A DNA stretch of 24,000 nucleotides from Caldilineaceae bacterium (GTDB lineage: Bacteria > Chloroflexota > Anaerolineae > Caldilineales > Caldilineaceae): NCBI GenBank assembly GCA_965208275.1, contig OZ242331.1, positions 2,093,225 to 2,117,224 of the forward strand, in the 5' to 3' direction. The position numbers were made by a program, and so were the translations under genes. Position 1 is the first letter of the stretch. Each line of letters begins with the position of its first letter. Under the pieces are notes generated by a model, which was not told the DNA's origin, made no database searches, and saw only the letters and a list, made by a program, of their open reading frames with translations. Below, piece by piece: positions 2,339-14,092 of the stretch.

Positions 2339-3898
2339 TCAATTGAGCGGTGGGAAGAATGTGAGATCGGCCCCGAAGTTGGACATGGCCGCCACGGAGT
2401 CGCCGCGCAGCTGCACGCCAATCTCGCGCGTCCGGTGCTTCAATACGATTTTCGACTCAGCCAGGTTGAATTCGATCGCAACCCATCGATTCAGTTGCGG
2501 GCGGCTCAAAACAAGGTAGCCGTTGCTCCACTGGTGCCCGCTCCCGATCCCGTCTACCCTGACCGAATCGGGCGTAACCCAGGTGGGTATACGGACGTAG
2601 AGCGGGCCCGGTCGTTTGACGCGCACGCGCAGGCTCCCGTTTGTATACGGGGACTCAACCGCAACCGCGTCTGTTTCTCGATCGAAGAGCAGGTGCACCC
2701 AGTGCCCGGCTTCGTCCGACACCACCGTTTGACGCATTGCTTCGCACAGTGAAGCCACTGCCCCGCCGACAATGTCCATGTTGAAGCTGATCCTCGTCGC
2801 GTCCAGCGGCTTATGGCCGTAGGGCGCGGGAAAGCCAAATGCGCCAAGATGACGCGCGGCGACATCCCTTTTGCCATCCTCGTCTTGCGGGTTGTCAGGC
2901 TCGCGAATGAAAGAGGTGTCGCGCAGCTGCGAAGGCAGCAGATGGCAGCGCAGAATCCTTTCGGCGTCCTCAAAATATGCTGGATACCCCCACTTCCCCA
3001 GAATCAGCGCCGTCTCGACGATGTCGCCCGTGTTGTTGACCTCGCCACGGTCCGGGTCGACGCGGTCGGCGCTGCTTTCGATGACCCAGCCGATCTCGTC
3101 GCGGATCTCGTTCAGTCCGTTGTCGTAAAATGCCCTCACCCTCTCCATCAAAGGCGCGTCTCGGTTCAGATCGGCCAGCTGGGCCAATGATGAAAGTACG
3201 CAAGTTGTCGAATGTGTATGCGTGCCGAAAGACTCACGGTCGTATCCGCCGCCGGGCAGGAAGAACTCGTCGGTGGCCTTACGCGCCAGCTCCAGTGCCA
3301 GGTCGAGCGCGCCCTTGCAACCCGTGTAGCGATGCAGCTTTACAAGCGGGCCGATCGCGCGGGCCAGGCCGGCAACGAATGTCGTGGAATGGAAGTCGAT
3401 CTCGTCGCCCAGGGCGGCCCTGTCCCACCCTTGTTCCCGGTCCCACAGCCGCTGGATCGCCTCGATGCTTGCTTCGGCCGTTGCCAGGGCCTGCTCGGAG
3501 CCGCGGAAGCGGGCCAGCGCGTAGAGGGCGTGAAAGCCCTCGCGTACATCGTGGGGAGAGAAGTGCTTGAGCCTGCCGCCGATGCGGTCGCGGTTGAGCG
3601 GCAGCGAATGTTCGCCGGAGTAGGACAAAAAGGCGGCGCGCGCGTGCCGGTCGATACAGCCCTCGTCGATATAGACGCCGGCTGCGTCTTCGGCGCTCAG
3701 GAGCGCGTTCAGATGACGCCCCGGAACATGGGACTCGTTATGCGTCGAGCTGAAACTCAGCCTCGCTTCCGGCCACACCTGCGAACCGAAAAAGGGAACG
3801 TCATCGTCATCGGCGTTGAAGACGGAACACATCGTCCGGCAGCCCAGCCGGATCGCTTCTCTGATATCCGCCGTGTTGACGTCGGCAAGCATCGTCAC
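2339..3898 (-). CDS. Six-hairpin (alpha/alpha)6-barrel plus C-terminal beta-sandwich protein, DUF1680/GH127-like architecture, specificity unknown
   Basis: The C-terminal pattern LYVRIPTWV..VRVDG..NGYLVLSR..NRWVAIEFNL resembles the GH127/DUF1680 tail. The helical N-terminal part is rich in repeats. No CC dipeptide or ETCA-like Zn/Cys site is seen, so it is not a canonical GH127. Start set to GTG 3898, with AAGGAG at 3905-3910 and a 6-nt spacer. The track start at 3997 overlaps the upstream gene and has no RBS. Confidence 0.55.
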   Translation of the reverse strand: MTMLADVNTADIREAIRLGCRTMCSVFNADDDDVPFFGSQVWPEARLSFSSTHNESHVPGRHLNALLSAEDAAGVYIDEGCIDRHARAAFLSYSGEHSLPLNRDRIGGRLKHFSPHDVREGFHALYALARFRGSEQALATAEASIEAIQRLWDREQGWDRAALGDEIDFHSTTFVAGLARAIGPLVKLHRYTGCKGALDLALELARKATDEFFLPGGGYDRESFGTHTHSTTCVLSSLAQLADLNRDAPLMERVRAFYDNGLNEIRDEIGWVIESSADRVDPDRGEVNNTGDIVETALILGKWGYPAYFEDAERILRCHLLPSQLRDTSFIREPDNPQDEDGKRDVAARHLGAFGFPAPYGHKPLDATRISFNMDIVGGAVASLCEAMRQTVVSDEAGHWVHLLFDRETDAVAVESPYTNGSLRVRVKRPGPLYVRIPTWVTPDSVRVDGIGSGHQWSNGYLVLSRPQLNRWVAIEFNLAESKIVLKHRTREIGVQLRGDSVAAMSNFGADLTFFPPLN

Positions 3899-3918
3899 CT
3901 GATTCTCCTTGATTTGAC

Positions 3919-5613
3919 TCAGGACCGCGCCTGAAACTGGAAGCCGTAAAGAGTGGACTCGAGCAACGAGAATTGGACCCGCACAGGCCTGTTCCACAGT
4001 TGACGCAAGTCAGGCCCGCCTTCCCAGGCCGCCGTATGCCAGATCTGCGAAGACGGCGCGTGCAGCGGGACCGACTGCTCCAGGCTGAAGCCGGGATAAG
4101 GCTTGAGTTCGGAATCGAGCAGTGCGACGCGCAGCGAGCCATAGGCGCAGTCGGCGTTGACCCGCAGCTCGTCGCCTTCGAATACAAACTGCTTCGTAAC
4201 GACCTGGCCCAATTCATATCTGGGACGGACCGCGGCCCAGCCGTCCTCGCGCAGCACAAGGCCGCCGATGCCGCGTTGCATAGACGCTTCCCGCCGCACT
4301 CTGTCCATCATCGGACTGCCCATCCCGTGCCGGCTCAGCTCTTCGATATGATGGCGGGAAGCCCTGGCTGCTGCCGCGGGCGCATGGTTGGAGACCCCGG
4401 CGGGCCGCGTGTCGCGCTGCTTGTGCGGAAAGGCGGAGTAGGCGATCACCATTCTGCCGTTATGCAGCAGGTAGTCGGATACGGTATGGGCCAGGTAGCC
4501 GTAGTCCTGGCTGCCGGGCGGTCCGTTGTCCGCCCAGGGCCGGTAGCCGTCGGCGCGAAAGAACCGATGGCCGTCGCGGCTGGCGTACAGCGCGGCCTTG
4601 ACATGGAACTGATCGCGCTGGTTGCTGCCGTCGCGGTTGACCAGCCACTGGTGTTCGCCGTGCGCCTCCTCGACGATGCCGATGTATAGGCCCCCCTCCT
4701 TGCGCACGGACATCGTGTGGAGCTCGACATTGGGGCCGACGCCGGGGTCCCAGTCGCCCGAAAGGATGACCTGTTTGGGCGACCAGTTGATGAAGTCGGC
4801 GCTCTCCTGGCGGCCGATCGTGCGGATGTGCAGGTGGCTGGCGAATGCGTGCGAGGCCTGCGAGTAGCCGGCCCACTTGCCATAGGCATCGTCCCAGATG
4901 ACGCGCATCTGGTGGTGATGGCGGAAGGGCGTGTCGTCGCTTATCACCTGCCAGCTAATCCCGTCCGGCGATGCGGCAACGCGTGACATGACGCGATTGC
5001 CGCGGCGGACGGCCTCCATCGATGGGTTGTAGACGGCCAGGAACTTGCGCGACGGGTCGCTCCTGTCCTGATTGAGAACAATGGTGCCGTTGTCGAAGTC
5101 CCGCATGACGATATTGGTACGCTGCTGGTCCGCGAACGGCTGACTGTCGTCGCGCATCGGCTTGTGCCACTGCAGCGCGTCGGCAGATTCGGCGTAGCAA
5201 AGCACGACCTCGGTCCCCTGCGCCGAGTTCGTGTTGCCGCTCACCAGCGTTTTGTACCACATCTTGTAGAGACCGTCGTCCGGGTCGTACAGGGCCGCCG
5301 CCGGGACACAGGTGAAGTGGTAGCGCTCCCAGGGCAGGTCCTCGTACGCGATGAGAGGGGACGCCGCCTTGTCCGGCCTCACGATGATCCGCTCCGCATC
5401 GATCAGTTCATCCAGAATGTAGTTGTCGAGGAAGAGTTGCTTTTGCCTGCCGATATGCTTGAATGGGAGGCGGTAGGGCGGATTGAAGTAGGGGTAGGTG
5501 AGGGGGTCCACGGGCCGATCACCCGCCCAGGTCTCCTCCATCGCCCGATTGGTGTCGGCGAGTTCGGTCTCGCTTCGCGCTTCTGGAGCAAGATGCAGAT
5601 CGCCTTCGGCCAT
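3919..5613 (-). CDS. Cytoplasmic beta-propeller glycosidase-like protein with C-terminal beta-sandwich (GH32/43/68-clan-like), paralog 1
   Basis: 564 aa. Contains QLFLDNYILD, YDPDDGLYKMWY, SPDGISW and a C-terminal LVLREDGWAAV..TKQFVFEGDELRVNAD..LRVALLD jelly-roll pattern like GH32-type C-domains. GGGAGGA lies 4 nt upstream of the ATG. No signal peptide. Clear paralog of 9461..11110. Confidence 0.6.
   Translation of the reverse strand: MAEGDLHLAPEARSETELADTNRAMEETWAGDRPVDPLTYPYFNPPYRLPFKHIGRQKQLFLDNYILDELIDAERIIVRPDKAASPLIAYEDLPWERYHFTCVPAAALYDPDDGLYKMWYKTLVSGNTNSAQGTEVVLCYAESADALQWHKPMRDDSQPFADQQRTNIVMRDFDNGTIVLNQDRSDPSRKFLAVYNPSMEAVRRGNRVMSRVAASPDGISWQVISDDTPFRHHHQMRVIWDDAYGKWAGYSQASHAFASHLHIRTIGRQESADFINWSPKQVILSGDWDPGVGPNVELHTMSVRKEGGLYIGIVEEAHGEHQWLVNRDGSNQRDQFHVKAALYASRDGHRFFRADGYRPWADNGPPGSQDYGYLAHTVSDYLLHNGRMVIAYSAFPHKQRDTRPAGVSNHAPAAAARASRHHIEELSRHGMGSPMMDRVRREASMQRGIGGLVLREDGWAAVRPRYELGQVVTKQFVFEGDELRVNADCAYGSLRVALLDSELKPYPGFSLEQSVPLHAPSSQIWHTAAWEGGPDLRQLWNRPVRVQFSLLESTLYGFQFQARS
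4775..4815. repeat. 41-nt tract identical to 10296..10336 (inside paralogous genes)
   Basis: ttgggcgaccagttgatgaagtcggcgctctcctggcggcc occurs at both sites and encodes GRQESADFINWSPK on the minus strand. Confidence 0.9.
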
Positions 5614-6012: not shown

Positions 6013-6720
6013 TTGCAGAAACAAACAGATCGTACTTCGCATAACGCGCAGCCATCTGCCGTCCGGAGATTCCTTCTTGCCGCAACTGTCCTGCTACTGT
6101 CGCTCGTGGCGGCGGCAGGCTACTTTCTCGCCAATGCGTACCGTGAGGGCCAGGAAATTCGTCGATACGTGGGTGGACCGTTCGGCCAGCAGCTGCTTTA
6201 CATGCAGGCGTGCGTATTGACAGACCGCGCCGGCGCCGCCGGCGCGGACTCTCTTGAAGCCCAGCTGGATACCTGCCGGCGCGGCCGCAGCCCCCAGGCC
6301 GGTTACTTTGTCTACGACTTCAACATCGGCAGGTCGGTCCCTCTTGGCGAAGAGGACCTGGCGCTGTGGAAGGAGTACGCCGTGTTCTCCTTTCCAGACT
6401 CCGTCGACGGGGAGGTCGTTGCCAGCGAGTCCAATCCGTTCAATCGTATCGTCCCGTTCGCAGACTTTACGGGCTTCGACTACGACTGTCTGCCCGTTGG
6501 GGACACAAGCGACTTTGCTTGCAAACGCGCCCCGGCTTCGTGCGACCTGAGCGCCCACTCGATCCGTTGCAGCGTGACGGACCCGCATACGGGAGAATCT
6601 GAACTGCACGTCATCGAGCGCGACCCAAAACTGGATCTCCTGCTGCCGCACGGATTCATCACCGGTCCGGATATCTTTAAGATGCTGAAACCACGCTTCT
6701 TCCCCCGGCTTGACAGCTAA
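6013..6720 (+). CDS. Hypothetical membrane-anchored, Cys-rich protein
   Basis: 235 aa with a TTG start and GGAGGA (6001-6006) 6 nt upstream. N-terminal signal-anchor helix FLLAATVLLLSLVAAAGYFLA. Six cysteines in the predicted extracytoplasmic part. No recognisable family. It is one of only three plus-strand genes, and the only one inside the minus-strand block. Confidence 0.55.
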   Translation: MQKQTDRTSHNAQPSAVRRFLLAATVLLLSLVAAAGYFLANAYREGQEIRRYVGGPFGQQLLYMQACVLTDRAGAAGADSLEAQLDTCRRGRSPQAGYFVYDFNIGRSVPLGEEDLALWKEYAVFSFPDSVDGEVVASESNPFNRIVPFADFTGFDYDCLPVGDTSDFACKRAPASCDLSAHSIRCSVTDPHTGESELHVIERDPKLDLLLPHGFITGPDIFKMLKPRFFPRLDS

Positions 6721-6779
6721 CGGCGCACGCCGCTACTGCATTGTGCAATCGGCGGCAAGCAGGCCCGGGACGCGCGCGG

Positions 6780-7556
6780 TCAGGCAGGAAAATGTTGCAC
6801 CGGACGTCGCTTGCCCCGCCTGTGGGCGTACAGCTCCTGCAGCGGCTGCGGGAATCTGTCAAAGATGTCGGCAGGGACGAAGGCGGCATTGCGCTTGCCG
6901 TACTCCGTGCTCAGCCACCAGGGCGAATAACGGGCGACCACTGAGGTGCGGGTCTCGTCGGTCGTGTTGGCTCCGCGCGAGTGCCAGATGCGGCTGTCGA
7001 TCAGCACCACGTCGCCGGCATCGCCGCAGACCTGCCGCTCGTTCGGAATCGCGCTGTGCTCGTCGATTCCGTCCTTCTCCCCGCGCGGGTTTGTGGGCTC
7101 GCGATGCGTGCCGGGCACGACCCACGTGGCGCCGTTCTCAGGCGTGAACTGATAGAGCATCCAGATGGAAGTGATGCTCATGATCATGTCGGGGAACGGC
7201 TGATTGACGCGCCCGCAGAAGGAACGGTCGGTCAGATCATGCGGCCAGTCGGTGTGAAAGCCGCGCCACGCCGGCGGATCGCTCCTGGGCGGAACGCTCT
7301 TGAACTCGGTCTGCGAAATGCGGACTGTGGCGTGGTTGAACATCGTCCGTACGATGCTCAGCAGTCTTGCGTCGGCAAAATAGGGCGCCAGCGAGAGCAT
7401 GTGGGTGACGGCAGACCAGTCGAGCTCATTGTATGCCTTGAGCCCGGCCACCATTGCGTTATCAATGTCGCTGCGAATGCCGCTTATCTCACCCTCGGGG
7501 ATTACGCCCTTGAGTAGACAGAAGCCGTCGCGGCGCAGCTGCGAAATCTCTTCCAT
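6780..7556 (-). CDS. Phytanoyl-CoA dioxygenase (PhyH) family Fe(II)/2-oxoglutarate-dependent oxygenase
   Basis: 258 aa. HxD facial-triad motif in GFHTDWPHD, distal His in IWHSRGANTT, and Arg in SVVARYSPWW. GGAGAG lies about 4 nt upstream of the ATG. Confidence 0.75.
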   Translation of the reverse strand: MEEISQLRRDGFCLLKGVIPEGEISGIRSDIDNAMVAGLKAYNELDWSAVTHMLSLAPYFADARLLSIVRTMFNHATVRISQTEFKSVPPRSDPPAWRGFHTDWPHDLTDRSFCGRVNQPFPDMIMSITSIWMLYQFTPENGATWVVPGTHREPTNPRGEKDGIDEHSAIPNERQVCGDAGDVVLIDSRIWHSRGANTTDETRTSVVARYSPWWLSTEYGKRNAAFVPADIFDRFPQPLQELYAHRRGKRRPVQHFPA

Positions 7557-7770: not shown

Positions 7771-9414
7771 TCAGCGCCAGTCGTCAACAGAGACTGTTCC
7801 GCCGTAGTTGCACCCCATGATGCGCCAGTAGCCGTTTGTCTCACCGCCGACGACGACGACGTGGATGTCGTCAAGCTCGTAGACCGGAATCATCTCGTCA
7901 GCGTCCACCTTGAGCTTGCTGGCATGCGGTTCGACGCCGTTGAGCGCCTGCGGGTAGACGTAGTTTTCGATCAGCTGGTAGTCCCAGTAGATCCCCGAGG
8001 GCATGGTGGCGTTGTCGTGGACCCACTGGATCAGCTTCTCCTTGGTGTCGAAGCCGCCGCGGTCGATGAACTGCTGCGCCGTGATGGGATCGAGCACCAG
8101 CGTCGGCGGGTTGTGCGGGTTGAGGCCGCGCAGCATATTGCGCACGTGGTCCTGCCAGTGCTTCGCCCGCAGGCCGAGATTGAACGCGGTTGACCGGCAG
8201 CCGCCGAAGACGCTGACCGCGCTCTGGTCCGGTTCGAAGCCGTGCTGCACGTGGAAGGGCACCCACGGACTGCGCTCTTCATTCTCGGCGAAGGTGACGC
8301 TGTTGTAGGCGTAGTTGTTGCCCTGCGAACCTAGATAGGTCACTTCGGGCAGCGAGCCGCCCTGCAGGTTCTGCGAGAGCAGGCCATAGGCGCGTCCGAT
8401 CGTGGCATTGGCGTGATTGTACGGGCCCATTGCGCCGATGCCCCAGTTCATCCCAATCTCCTCGCGGACGGGACCGTTGACGACCGCCATCGACGCGGCC
8501 GAGCTTGTTGTGCTGGCACGGGCCGACGCGCAGGTCGCGGCCAGGGCCAGGATCACGGGCAGGTACTCGGGCCTGGCGCCGGCCATCACCGCGTTGACCG
8601 CCACTTTCTCAACGGTGTACTGCCAGGCTTCGCGCGTCGAGGTTGGCCGCATGTGGCCCACCACCGTGTCCGGGCTGCGGCTGGTCCCTTTCAACATGGC
8701 CTCAACCCGCTCCTCTGTCGGCAGGATGATCGGCAGCATGTCGGTCCAACGATTGTCCACGAAGAGATGGTGCAGATTCTCCTCACTGTCAGACTCGACA
8801 AAGCGGGGCGTAGAGCGGTCGAAGGCGTGCGCGCGCGTCTCCTCCGCCGAGGGCGCGCGCGTGAGCGCGGCGATGACCTCGCCCATGAAGGGACGGCCGG
8901 TGATGTCGTCAGGTCCGTCGACGTAGGCGCGCAGCTGCTCGGGAGAGCGGCCCATGACCGGCTGCGGCACGAAGGCATGGCGCAGATAGGGGATCCCCTG
9001 CTGCAGGGTGGAAGCCTTCACCAGGGGCTCGAAGATCCCCGTCTGGATGGAGGCCGTGGCAACGTTGTACTCGGTTTCCAGAATAATGCATTGGTCGGCG
9101 ACCGCCGGCGCACAGGTACTTCAATGGCCGACGGCCATGACGGCCCCTGCCCCCTTCCGCTGGATCTCCGTATAGAGCGCTTCGTCCCGCTCGGTGTAGA
9201 CGCCCGACTTGCGCCGCACTTCGATCTGTATGTCGGGCCGGTTCTCGCGAAACCAGTTCGCCATCTGTTCAACCAGGATGTCGCCGTCGTCGAAGCGGCA
9301 GTCGACGAGGTAGACAGTCTTCCCGGCCAGGTCGCTGACACGCGGCGCCAGATGCTTCTGGTCAATCTGGGGAGGATAGCCCATCGGGTTGTGAACGCGC
9401 AGATCTGTGGCCAT
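7771..9414 (-). CDS. Putative selenoprotein: UGSC-like U-x-x-C redox module fused to a domain of unknown function (547 residues, Sec at 98 encoded by TGA 9121-9123)
   Basis: Track ORFs 9121..9414 and 7771..9021 share one frame, and the 33 codons between them (9022..9120) contain no stop. The only interruption is one TGA, in the context AVGH-U-STCAPAVADQC. AAGGAG (9421-9426) lies 6 nt upstream of ATG 9414, whereas the GTG at 9021 has no SD. GC3 of the bridging codons is 26/33, which is coding-like. A hairpin follows the TGA. Confidence 0.7.
9087..9112 (-). promoter_or_regulatory. Candidate bacterial SECIS hairpin
   Basis: Numbered from the U of UGA as +1. Lower stem +12-15 / +34-37 (UGCG/UGCA, including one G-U pair). 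Upper stem +17-20 / +25-28 (CGGC/GCCG). Apical loop GGUC at +21-24, which places G-U at +22/+23. Confidence 0.5.
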
Positions 9415-9460
9415 ACCTTGCTCCTTACAAATTGGATTCTCGATTAAGTCTTGTCTCCGC

Positions 9461-11161: not shown

Positions 11162-12064
11162 TCAGATGCCCCACATCTCCCGCATTTCTGCCATCGTCTT
11201 TCGGTTCTCGGCTTTGGGGATATTGCCCGGGTGCGGCCCCATGTGACGCTCGTCGACCGGCTCGGAGGCCAACTGGTAGCGCGTGTCCGTGCTGATGCGG
11301 TAGCGGTCGGAGACGTTGTCCAGCGAACCGTGCAGAAAGAACATGCCAAATATCATCACGTCGCCGGCGCGGAAAGGCGTGGACGCCCACTGCACGCCGA
11401 GGCTTTCGATCAGGTCATGCGGGTCGCGGCTGAGGTGGCCGTCGAGGAGGTCGTTGTGCGCGTCGGCCGTCCCATAAGTGGAGCGCAGAATGTCGAGCCG
11501 GTTGGAGCCTGGGCAAAAGGCGAGAGGGCCCATAGTCAGCGAAATGTCGTCCAGCGGCGTCCAGGCCGTGTACAACTGCTTTGTGCCCGCGCCCATGAAC
11601 ACAACGTCATAGTGGGCGCCTGTGCTCACTCCCGTGCTGACCGCGCGCGGCCATTTGTGGTCCAGCGTCAGGACCGGCCCGCCCAGGAACCGTTCAAAGA
11701 AGGCCATGATGCGGCGCGAATTGACGAGGCGCAGGTAGTTGGGCATCTTGAGGACATCGTCGTGTGGAAGGACGGCGTTGCCGCCTTCCTGCCCAACTGT
11801 GCCTTTCTCCATAGGGACATCCTTTGCGAGACGCCCTTGCTCCGACAGCTGCTTCAGAATGTCAGTCCTGGCGGAAAGCACGGCTTCACGGTCGTAGAAC
11901 CCGCGAATGAGTAGGTAACCGTCTTCTTCAATCCTGGCGTGCAGTGCTGCCGCGTCGTGCAAAATGCCGTTGGCATCGCGCGGCGTGAAGATCGTCTGAC
12001 CGAAGACAAGCTCATGTCCGGCCATCGAGACCTTGGTTCCATCTGCTACTGCCGGAGCTCTCAT
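11162..12064 (-). CDS. Phytanoyl-CoA dioxygenase (PhyH) family Fe(II)/2-oxoglutarate-dependent oxygenase
   Basis: 300 aa. HxD in TGAHYDVVF, distal His in FFLHGSLDN, and Arg in RYRISTDTRY. GAGGAGG lies 10 nt upstream of ATG 12064. An alternative ATG at 12025 is possible. Confidence 0.75.
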   Translation of the reverse strand: MRAPAVADGTKVSMAGHELVFGQTIFTPRDANGILHDAAALHARIEEDGYLLIRGFYDREAVLSARTDILKQLSEQGRLAKDVPMEKGTVGQEGGNAVLPHDDVLKMPNYLRLVNSRRIMAFFERFLGGPVLTLDHKWPRAVSTGVSTGAHYDVVFMGAGTKQLYTAWTPLDDISLTMGPLAFCPGSNRLDILRSTYGTADAHNDLLDGHLSRDPHDLIESLGVQWASTPFRAGDVMIFGMFFLHGSLDNVSDRYRISTDTRYQLASEPVDERHMGPHPGNIPKAENRKTMAEMREMWGI

Positions 12065-13208: not shown

Positions 13209-13243
13209 TGGGGTCGCTGACGTTCGTTTGGGACGGTGCGGTC

Positions 13244-13271
13244 AGTATAGTCCATGTCGATCGGCGGGCAA
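13244..13271 (-). promoter_or_regulatory. Candidate sigma70-type promoter for the Kelch-PhyH-propeller-selenoprotein-PhyH operon
   Basis: Minus sense reads TTGCCC (13271-13266), a 16-nt spacer, then TATACT (13249-13244), ending 35 nt upstream of ATG 13208. It lies in the only sizeable non-coding gap upstream of this gene block. Confidence 0.35.
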
Positions 13272-13307
13272 AAGGAGGTGTTCGGTTCTGAGTTCTGGTG
13301 CGTGTCA

Positions 13308-13679
13308 TCAAAGTCGCTGCCGGAGATTGGACAGGCCCTGGACCCGGTGCGTTTCCCGCAAACGGAAGCCTTTTGTACAAGCCTTGCTCAGAGGCCATGA
13401 GAACAATCCCTGACTGTACGAGATGACAAGGAAAAACACACAGACTGCAAAGGGGGTCCGGACGCGCCAGAACAGGAACCGATGCAGGCCGCCTACTCTG
13501 ACCTGGTTGGTTGCCCGCGGAAATCTGTCGGGTTCATCGGCTGCAAGTTCCCTTCCGGTTCCCAGTCTGCATTCGGACCCAGATCTCTTTCCGCAGGCAG
13601 GTTGAGGGGTTGGACCCGAACGCCCACGACAATGTACAAACGTCCTGTTCGGCAGGCGGTCCCCAGAGTGCCCCCGCAT
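13308..13679 (-). pseudogene. Decayed partial tandem duplicate of the small membrane-protein gene 13710..14081
   Basis: Shares AADEP(D/E)RFPR (13515-13544 versus 13806-13835, offset 291 nt) followed by Q(V/I)R..GL...F.(F/M)W. It has no RBS at its ATG, lacks the N-terminal TM helix, and sits in a lower-GC spacer. Confidence 0.3.
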
Positions 13680-13709
13680 CCGGTTTAGAGTTGCTGAGTT
13701 TCAATGTAC

Positions 13710-14081
13710 TTATCTGCCTGAGAGCAACAAACCAATCAGTCTGCCTGCCCAGACGGTCCACATGACGAACAGGAGCAGACCCAGAAGCCTGATCTGCAGG
13801 AGGACGCGGGGAAACCTCTCGGGCTCATCGGCGGCACTGAGAAAGACGTCCGCGGAAGGCGCGCCCAGGAATAAGCGAAAGAGGGCGGAGGGCCAGGGGC
13901 CTATCTTCACGCCGGGCCACCCCTCGCCCGGCTTCCGTTCGAATCTGAAGAGCCGCTGCCAGCACCTGATCTGCCATGCGAGGAATCTCTTTGGCCTGAA
14001 CAGGAGCAGGCAGCAGATTGGAGGCGACACGAGGACCAGTGGGCCCAGTACTGCAATCGTGAGGAGTTCGTCGCCCGTCAA
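13710..14081 (-). CDS. Small hypothetical membrane protein (2-3 TM helices)
   Basis: 123 aa with a TTG start. GGAGCA lies 7 nt upstream, immediately after the aldolase stop codon. Hydrophobic helices are LLTIAVLGPLVLVSPPICCLLLF and LLGLLLFVMWTVWAGRLIGLLL. Confidence 0.45.
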   Translation of the reverse strand: MTGDELLTIAVLGPLVLVSPPICCLLLFRPKRFLAWQIRCWQRLFRFERKPGEGWPGVKIGPWPSALFRLFLGAPSADVFLSAADEPERFPRVLLQIRLLGLLLFVMWTVWAGRLIGLLLSGR

Positions 14082-14092
14082 CCTGTTGCTCC

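Follow-up and report, generated by a model that had tools for sequence, protein, structure and literature searches.

UGSC-containing proteins have been catalogued as a selenoprotein family with a U-x-x-C motif, U being selenocysteine (Sec), since the Sargasso Sea and Global Ocean Sampling (GOS) surveys, where they were among the most abundant selenoprotein families and were described as 'likely Trx-like', that is, thioredoxin-like (PMC2398784, 2008). The family is also listed among selenoproteins in PMC13188914, and reviews of 2022 and 2026 still give it as uncharacterised. A fusion of UGSC to a further domain, UGSC/Unknown_1, was recorded in the GOS metagenome (Fig. S1A, PMC2398784). The stretch of DNA considered here, referred to as the window, comprises 24,000 nucleotides of a Caldilineaceae bacterium of the phylum Chloroflexota (assembly GCA_965208275.1, contig OZ242331.1, positions 2,093,225 to 2,117,224 of the forward strand). 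On its minus strand, two called open reading frames (ORFs), 9121..9414 and 7771..9021, very probably constitute one gene whose internal TGA is recoded as Sec. This gene is a new, mis-annotated member of an already known selenoprotein family, in which a UGSC fusion has been reported before.

The internal TGA and its reading frame

The upstream ORF runs from ATG 9414 through 97 codons to the TGA, past which the frame stays open for 33 codons (9120..9022) and joins the downstream ORF, giving 547 codons and a stop. Translation across the junction reads ...GAGAVMAVGH-TGA-STCAPAVADQCIILETEYNVATASIQ..., or, in shorter form, ...AVMAVGH-TGA-STCAPAVADQCIILE..., placing U98-S-T-C101 and C109 in the product. 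Third positions are G or C (GC3) in 26/33 of the bridging codons. A strong ribosome-binding site precedes only ATG 9414, and no Shine–Dalgarno sequence lies upstream of GTG 9021, the called start of the downstream ORF. Moreover, TGA serves as the ordinary terminator of neighbouring ORFs at 6780, 7771, 12111 and 14093. All of these features had been put forward in a first-pass annotation of the locus, made from the sequence alone, and they held on re-reading and retranslation. The significance of the frame continuation derives from homology, selection and an RNA element.

A search of 5.8 billion proteins with the 547-residue reading recovered relatives of two classes, about 8000 in all. Full-length relatives (545-560 aa) are ~60% identical to the query at 99-100% coverage, with E-values down to 1e-232, whereas short ones (416-444 aa) are 71-97% identical and begin at assorted points just past the TGA column; this short class is attributed to gene callers truncating Sec forms. 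Full-length Cys forms make up about half of the best 120 protein matches, and 13/13 aligned full-length homologs show GVGH-C-STCAP at the TGA column, each as one chain. The starts chosen by gene callers downstream differ among relatives, with products of 371-444 aa. As the first-pass annotation had anticipated, the gene is truncated in public records as well: the nearest GenBank entries for the lineage are 416-aa 'hypothetical protein' records (MCY3901463.1, MYH62461.1).

The position of the TGA is conserved far beyond the source lineage. Scanning one genome per GTDB species yielded 44 loci, most of them in sponge-associated Caldilineaceae metagenome-assembled genomes (MAGs) at 86-94% identity, several of these being closed chromosomes (OZ241871.1, for instance, has an ortholog at 94% identity); the remainder belong to Latescibacterota, other Chloroflexota, Burkholderiales and Desulfovibrionaceae. 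The best matches are 94-98% identical. A metagenome scan added 78 full-length loci at 62-84% identity. In 119/120 related loci, TGA stands at the aligned codon and is the one stop within the frame; a single proteobacterial locus (L041) carries TGC instead. The earlier expectation of single chains with Cys or TGA at position 98 is thus borne out on both sides. More distant members at 37-43% identity (L044, L138) keep TGA at the same codon; in L138, a low-G+C locus that is 37% identical, it lies within a D-U-G-T-C motif.

Selection on the bridge is consistent with its translation. Against 34 colinear orthologs, the ratio of nonsynonymous to synonymous substitution rates (dN/dS) comes to 0.095 over bridge codons 99-131, compared with 0.098 in the upstream and 0.074 in the downstream ORF. 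Purifying selection on the bridge therefore equals that on the two ORFs, which argues that the bridge is translated. Additionally, the Pfam UGSC match covers residues 7-165, so that a single domain runs across the TGA.

With regard to family, the first-pass annotation had noted a resemblance to UGSC, and this stands. Pfam PF24696 (UGSC) matches at 58.8 bits against a gathering cut-off of 25, over profile positions 2-159 of 172, and the NCBI label 'UGSC family (seleno)protein' is carried by 553-aa Cys homologs and by truncated Sec homologs; U98-S-T-C101 aligns with Cys in the 13 full-length homologs. Equivalence to the short family does not follow: on the NCBIfam equivalog model NF041046 (UGSC_fam, about 147 aa), the protein reaches 43.5 bits, where the cut-off is 125. 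All long forms tested fall short of that cut-off (43-59 bits), including long homologs that NCBI itself names so (52-59 bits). The Pfam match and the motif, taken with the shortfall on the equivalog model, point to a distinct long-form subfamily, and the window protein, a long form, is related to the short UGSC protein without being its equivalog. C109 is present near the motif in the window protein, but it is confined to some Sec clades, and Ala or Gly replaces it in many Sec forms, which rules it out as a resolving Cys coupled to Sec.

The candidate SECIS element

By published constraints, a bacterial selenocysteine insertion sequence (SECIS) element has a 3-9 nt apical loop that carries G in its first two positions, and the upper stem measures 4-16 bp; the loop lies 16-37 nt from the UGA, and the minimum free energy (MFE) is at most -7.5 kcal/mol (PMC13188914, PMC10778597). 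Counted from the U of the UGA, an apical hairpin CGGC-GGUC-GCCG occupies +17..+28 (window 9107-9096, loop GGUC at 9103-9100), and in a lower stem +11..+15 pairs with +34..+38 (9113-9109 with 9090-9086). The hairpin is recovered by RNAalifold, with a folding free energy (dG) of -8.2 to -8.8 kcal/mol, and its GGUC loop, 4-bp stem and 17-nt spacing agree with the published constraints.

Synonymous variation points to the same place. In 10-codon windows over 33 Caldilineaceae orthologs, the ten least synonymously diverse of the whole gene all begin at codons 90-104; values there fall as low as 0.086, where the mean over the gene is 0.338, and codons 103-109 have zero diversity. The synonymous substitution rate (dS) of the bridge is likewise lowered (0.55 vs 0.77-0.90). 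Furthermore, a 13-nt core, CCGGCGGTCGCCG, is identical in 117/120 Sec-form sequences across phyla and occurs in 0/6 Cys-form loci, all six of which vary at the third positions of the P-A-V-A codons. Where the core changes, a hairpin is kept. In L131, C20 becomes U and the stem retains a U-G pair; in L065 and L089, loop positions 21 and 24 change jointly (GGUC to AGUU); L044 has a hairpin of different sequence at the same offset, CCCGG-CGUGCU-CCGGG; and L138 has a 7-bp hairpin there, CCGGUGG-GGUAU-CCACUGG. Neither of these last two hairpins is column-aligned with the main type. Synonymous constraint, specificity to Sec forms and maintenance of the hairpin in the exceptions together argue that the RNA itself is under selection. 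Its almost frozen sequence across phyla is explained by the fact that it also encodes the conserved peptide P-A-V-A.

A separate observation concerns codons 90-97 (9124-9147, minus strand), just 5' of the UGA, where synonymous diversity is very low among Caldilineaceae. In the MFE fold of 9135-9050, the stretch GCCGUCGGCCAU from these codons pairs with the 5' half of the SECIS region, a pairing that would compete with the apical hairpin; the same upstream codons vary freely in other phyla.

Table 1. Coordinates of the proposed selenoprotein gene, its elements and selected neighbouring genes in the window
Feature	Position	Strand	Description and basis
Proposed selenoprotein gene, complete	7771..9414	minus	547 codons, Sec at codon 98, TGA terminator 7773-7771; sequence, ORFs, homologs, dN/dS
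Shine–Dalgarno AAGGAG	9421..9426	minus	6 nt 5' of ATG 9414
In-frame TGA, codon 98, very probably read as Sec	9121..9123	minus	Cys in aligned full-length homologs; TGA in 119/120 loci
Redox motif U98-S-T-C101	9112..9123	minus	invariant G96-H97 just before; alignments and Cys-homolog model
Candidate bacterial SECIS	9086..9113	minus	nt +11 to +38 from U of UGA; folding, conservation, published constraints
UGSC domain, N-terminal, residues 7-165	8920..9396	minus	spans the TGA; Pfam PF24696, 58.8 bits
C-terminal domain, ~380 aa, residues 169-547	7774..8910	minus	no family model
PhyH-family (phytanoyl-CoA dioxygenase-like) gene	6780-7556	minus	with the next, brackets the selenoprotein and 549-aa paralog genes
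PhyH-family (phytanoyl-CoA dioxygenase-like) gene	11162-12064	minus	as above
Paralog ORF, 549 aa	9461-11110	minus	50% identical to the 564-aa paralog; no Pfam or NCBIfam match
Paralog ORF, 564 aa	3919-5613	minus	50% identical to the 549-aa paralog; no Pfam or NCBIfam match

Protein architecture, genomic neighbourhood and possible function

The fold was approached through P0017, a Cys homolog at 63% identity, which was modelled with AlphaFold2 (mean predicted local distance difference test score (pLDDT) 84.5, predicted template modelling score (pTM) 0.82). Its N-terminal domain is modelled as a five-strand beta-alpha repeat (35-151), with the first Cys, which corresponds to the Sec position, in the beta3-alpha3 loop that follows strand 92-98, and with helix 103-117 carrying the second Cys at its N-terminus. 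As modelled, the CxxC sits at a strand/helix junction, the classical position of a redox centre, in agreement with the earlier placement of the TGA between a beta strand and a helix. The domain looks flavodoxin- or Rossmann-like rather than Trx-like, and its Foldseek matches to such folds are all weak (E > 1e-3).

The C-terminal domain has no match in Pfam or NCBIfam. It is represented by 4064 clusters at 50% identity (E<=1e-3), nearly always behind a UGSC domain, and most of the invariant polar residues of the alignments (W, D, N, R, E, H) fall within it. Two candidates for a stand-alone form of this domain were considered. P0197 (L138 279-1898, 371 aa) proved to be an artefact, with an in-frame 102-aa UGSC ORF lying upstream across the TGA, and P0195 sits on a contig too short for a judgement; truncated calls like that in L138 probably inflate database counts of 'stand-alone' members. 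Another homolog, P0116 (L131 7041-8001; L132), has an insertion sequence (IS) element with a DDE_Tnp_1 transposase immediately upstream, its usual N-terminus (NPMGYPP...) being replaced after an in-frame stop, and the gene may be truncated or inactivated.

Outside Caldilineaceae, the commonest neighbour of the gene is a flavoprotein resembling thioredoxin reductase (TrxR) and AhpF (TIGR01292, 314 bits; CASC motif; 304-328 aa). Naive longest-ORF calls of neighbours contained many spurious antisense ORFs in the G+C-rich flanks, and only this TrxR-like neighbour was retained, after confirmation by tblastn and NCBIfam. In 18 Sec-form loci it shares the strand of the UGSC gene and follows at a distance of 40-208 nt (L038, L059, L065, L081, L083, L086, L088, L089, L099, L100, L108, L109, L111, L113, L114, L119, L122, L123). 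The gene also follows directly in two Cys-form alphaproteobacterial loci, a Sphingomonadaceae MAG (L126 9665-10579) and a Bradyrhizobium (L127 9695-10681), which have a divergent MarR gene upstream and an AMP-binding ligase and/or a major facilitator superfamily (MFS) transporter after the TrxR-like gene. Its recurrent adjacency points to a reductase system.

On the sequence and comparative evidence, UGA98 is very probably decoded as selenocysteine. In such a mechanism, the G+C-rich hairpin, with its GGUC loop 17 nt past the UGA, would act as the SECIS and recruit SelB, GTP and Sec-tRNA(Sec), while the other TGA stops in the window would be left unaffected. The N-terminal alpha/beta domain would bear a U-x-x-C selenol/thiol redox centre, and the fused conserved domain of ~380 residues presumably binds or transforms the substrate. 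A selenenylsulfide between U98 and C101 would then be re-reduced by a TrxR-like flavoprotein, of the kind whose gene comes next after the UGSC gene in many relatives; for the source genome, either a reductase encoded at a distance or the general thioredoxin system would serve. The protein is most likely the substrate-facing half of a reductase system, in which a TrxR-type reductase probably recycles the U/CxxC centre and the fused domain would deal with the substrate.

A more specific proposal can be advanced only tentatively and is rather doubtful as a whole. According to it, long-form UGSC, a family of 4000 or more clusters at 50% identity, would be the catalytic subunit of a very widespread NAD(P)H-dependent (seleno)thiol reductase with a TrxR-like partner; the C-terminal fold would have no solved analogue, and the substrate would be small and polar. 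In sponge-associated Caldilineaceae, this enzyme would have been recruited to a glycan/organic-acid island beside PhyH and propeller-like paralogs.

Nearly all of the window is one minus-strand catabolic island around the selenoprotein gene, and the same families flank the ortholog on a related 4.9-Mb Caldilineaceae contig (L001). The island encodes Opp-type ATP-binding cassette (ABC) permeases, four GFO/IDH/MocA oxidoreductases, Ldh_2, a BNR sialidase-like protein, an HpcH/HpaI aldolase, a NanM/Kelch protein, a PIG-L deacetylase and a 552-aa ORF (2339-3997) of no known family; the plus strand carries Amdase and DUF3830 genes. Asp-box-like motifs (SPDGIxW, SRDGxR) in the 549- and 564-aa paralogs suggest propeller-type, glycosidase-like proteins. 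The order PhyH, 549-aa paralog, selenoprotein, PhyH is found in about 25-30 Caldilineaceae genomes, and the 549-aa copy by itself is kept just upstream of the selenoprotein gene in about 28-30. In L001, a DDE transposase gene (6030-7037) is inserted in the orthologous island, which indicates mobile-element activity in such islands.

Between the Kelch-like and aldolase genes of the window, ~880 nt (13209-14092) hold no convincing gene. A 28-residue stretch, 57% identical, is common to two 123-aa ORFs in this gap and reflects a ~30-nt motif, TGCnGCCGATGAnCCCGAnAGnTTTCC, whose two copies are separated by about 291 nt (near 13520 and 13811); no longer repeat was found. A hunt for further TGA-split genes in the window was uninformative, owing to its high G+C content.

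Alternative explanations and comparison with known systems

Several observations weigh against a TrxR-recycled selenoprotein at this locus. In the 63% G+C window, a TGA with at least 50 stop-free codons on each side is found dozens of times, so that the open frame past 9121 alone carries no significance. The hairpin has no Rfam match at gathering or permissive thresholds, and classical covariation support is thin because the 4-bp apical stem is almost invariant, leaving it to few divergent members. A tRNA scan found no tRNA in the window, and none of selA, selB, selC and selD lies in the window or in 1.09 Mb of related loci, over which tRNA-Sec was sought with ARAGORN and SelD by tblastn with the E. 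coli protein; this absence is uninformative because just the flanks of loci are covered. On the functional side, tblastn found no TrxR-like gene in the window, such a neighbour is present in just 16/69 non-Caldilineaceae loci with enough downstream sequence, and gene neighbourhoods differ widely across the family. Moreover, neither sequence nor Foldseek comparison gave a PDB relative of the C-terminal domain, and since no fold or catalytic residues were identified for it, the role of 'reductase' is inferred.

These functional points are also what sustains the best surviving alternative, an unlikely one, in which the U-x-x-C centre works without dedicated TrxR-like recycling: it would act by itself as a peroxidase or in detoxification, or would bind selenium or a metal, and the C-terminal domain would be structural or regulatory. 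The scarcity of the reductase gene and the varied contexts fit such a protein, and the MarR regulator beside the Cys forms would suit a stress or detoxification role. However, most of the invariant polar residues sit in the C-terminal domain, a distribution expected of a catalytic or substrate-binding domain. Nearly all family members have the two domains fused in the same order, and outside Caldilineaceae no neighbour recurs more often than the TrxR-like gene. A substrate-facing partner of a TrxR-type reductase is therefore preferred.

The reading of the codon itself is far less contested. It is very unlikely that the TGA is a true stop, leaving either a 97-aa fragment and a 416-aa protein from GTG 9021 or a pseudogene, even though gene callers and GenBank annotate the locus as two products, open frames past TGA are common at this G+C content, and termination at UGA under selenium limitation would give the 97-aa fragment. 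The proposed downstream start lacks a Shine–Dalgarno sequence and downstream starts are unconserved, while the bridge, under the purifying selection described above (dN/dS 0.095), holds the essential second Cys. One Pfam domain spans the stop, and the Cys forms are single chains. A pseudogene is incompatible with the same 'stop' in 119 loci over several phyla.

Reading of the UGA by some other recoding, either reassignment to Trp or Gly or near-cognate suppression by Cys or Trp, is highly improbable. It gains some room from the fact that the Sec machinery of the source genome is unconfirmed, but of 16 further large minus-strand ORFs examined across the window, 11 end in TGA, so the genetic code is not changed, and homologs align Cys at the position, not Trp or Gly. 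The SECIS-type hairpin lies at canonical spacing, and the family is catalogued as a selenoprotein (PMC2398784, PMC13188914). Site-specific recoding rather than a reassigned code, as originally proposed, is upheld by these counts. Finally, a sequencing or assembly error for TGC/TGT that would make the gene a Cys form, a caution attached to the first-pass annotation, is scarcely credible despite the abundance of Cys forms among the best 120 matches and the TGC of L041, given that 119 independent assemblies, closed long-read chromosomes among them, have TGA at this codon and that the RNA element following it is specific to Sec forms and absent from Cys forms.

With Sec at codon 98 as the favoured reading, correcting the annotation adds a selenoprotein to Caldilineaceae and restores the redox centre that the 416-aa records lose. 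The corrected gene implies the use of Sec by sponge-associated Chloroflexota. The current picture of Sec decoding is unchanged by this gene, and the fused domain, the TrxR-like partnership and the frozen SECIS are leads rather than discoveries. Nevertheless, the near-obligatory fusion, the recurrent TrxR-like neighbour and the frozen SECIS make the UGSC family approachable experimentally.

Compared with the canonical bacterial SECIS (E. coli fdhF type; bSECISearch consensus), the window element is likewise a hairpin within the ORF right after the UGA, with a GGUC loop, a spacing within 16-37 nt, a stem of at least 4 bp and an MFE below -7.5 kcal/mol; unlike it, the upper stem is minimal, with 4 bp that are all G-C. 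In E. coli fdhF, the SECIS likewise has GGUC as its apical loop, with G23/U24. Among enzymes, the GrdB and PrdB subunits of glycine and proline reductases are UxxC selenoproteins of reductive Sec chemistry that are recycled by the thioredoxin system. They offer an analogy alone, the window protein having no PF07355 match at E<=1. Two-component systems such as TrxR/Trx and AhpF/AhpC resemble the arrangement in about 20 relatives, where the gene for a CxxC TrxR-like flavoprotein lies 3' of a C/UxxC gene. They differ in that no such gene adjoins the window copy and in that the modelled acceptor is a parallel alpha/beta domain with a C-terminal fusion, not a thioredoxin or peroxiredoxin.

The closest relationship is with the UGSC family itself (PF24696; NF041046; Zhang and Gladyshev 2008, PMC2398784), which shares the UxxC motif, the alternation of Sec and Cys and environmental abundance, whereas the window protein has U-S-T-C instead of U-G-S-C and 547 aa instead of about 150. 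A search for motifs of the fused domain in the supplements of PMC2398784 gave no match. With UGSC/Unknown_1, the window protein shares the fusion of a UGSC domain to a conserved uncharacterised domain known from few cultured organisms, and its C-terminal domain may correspond to Unknown_1.

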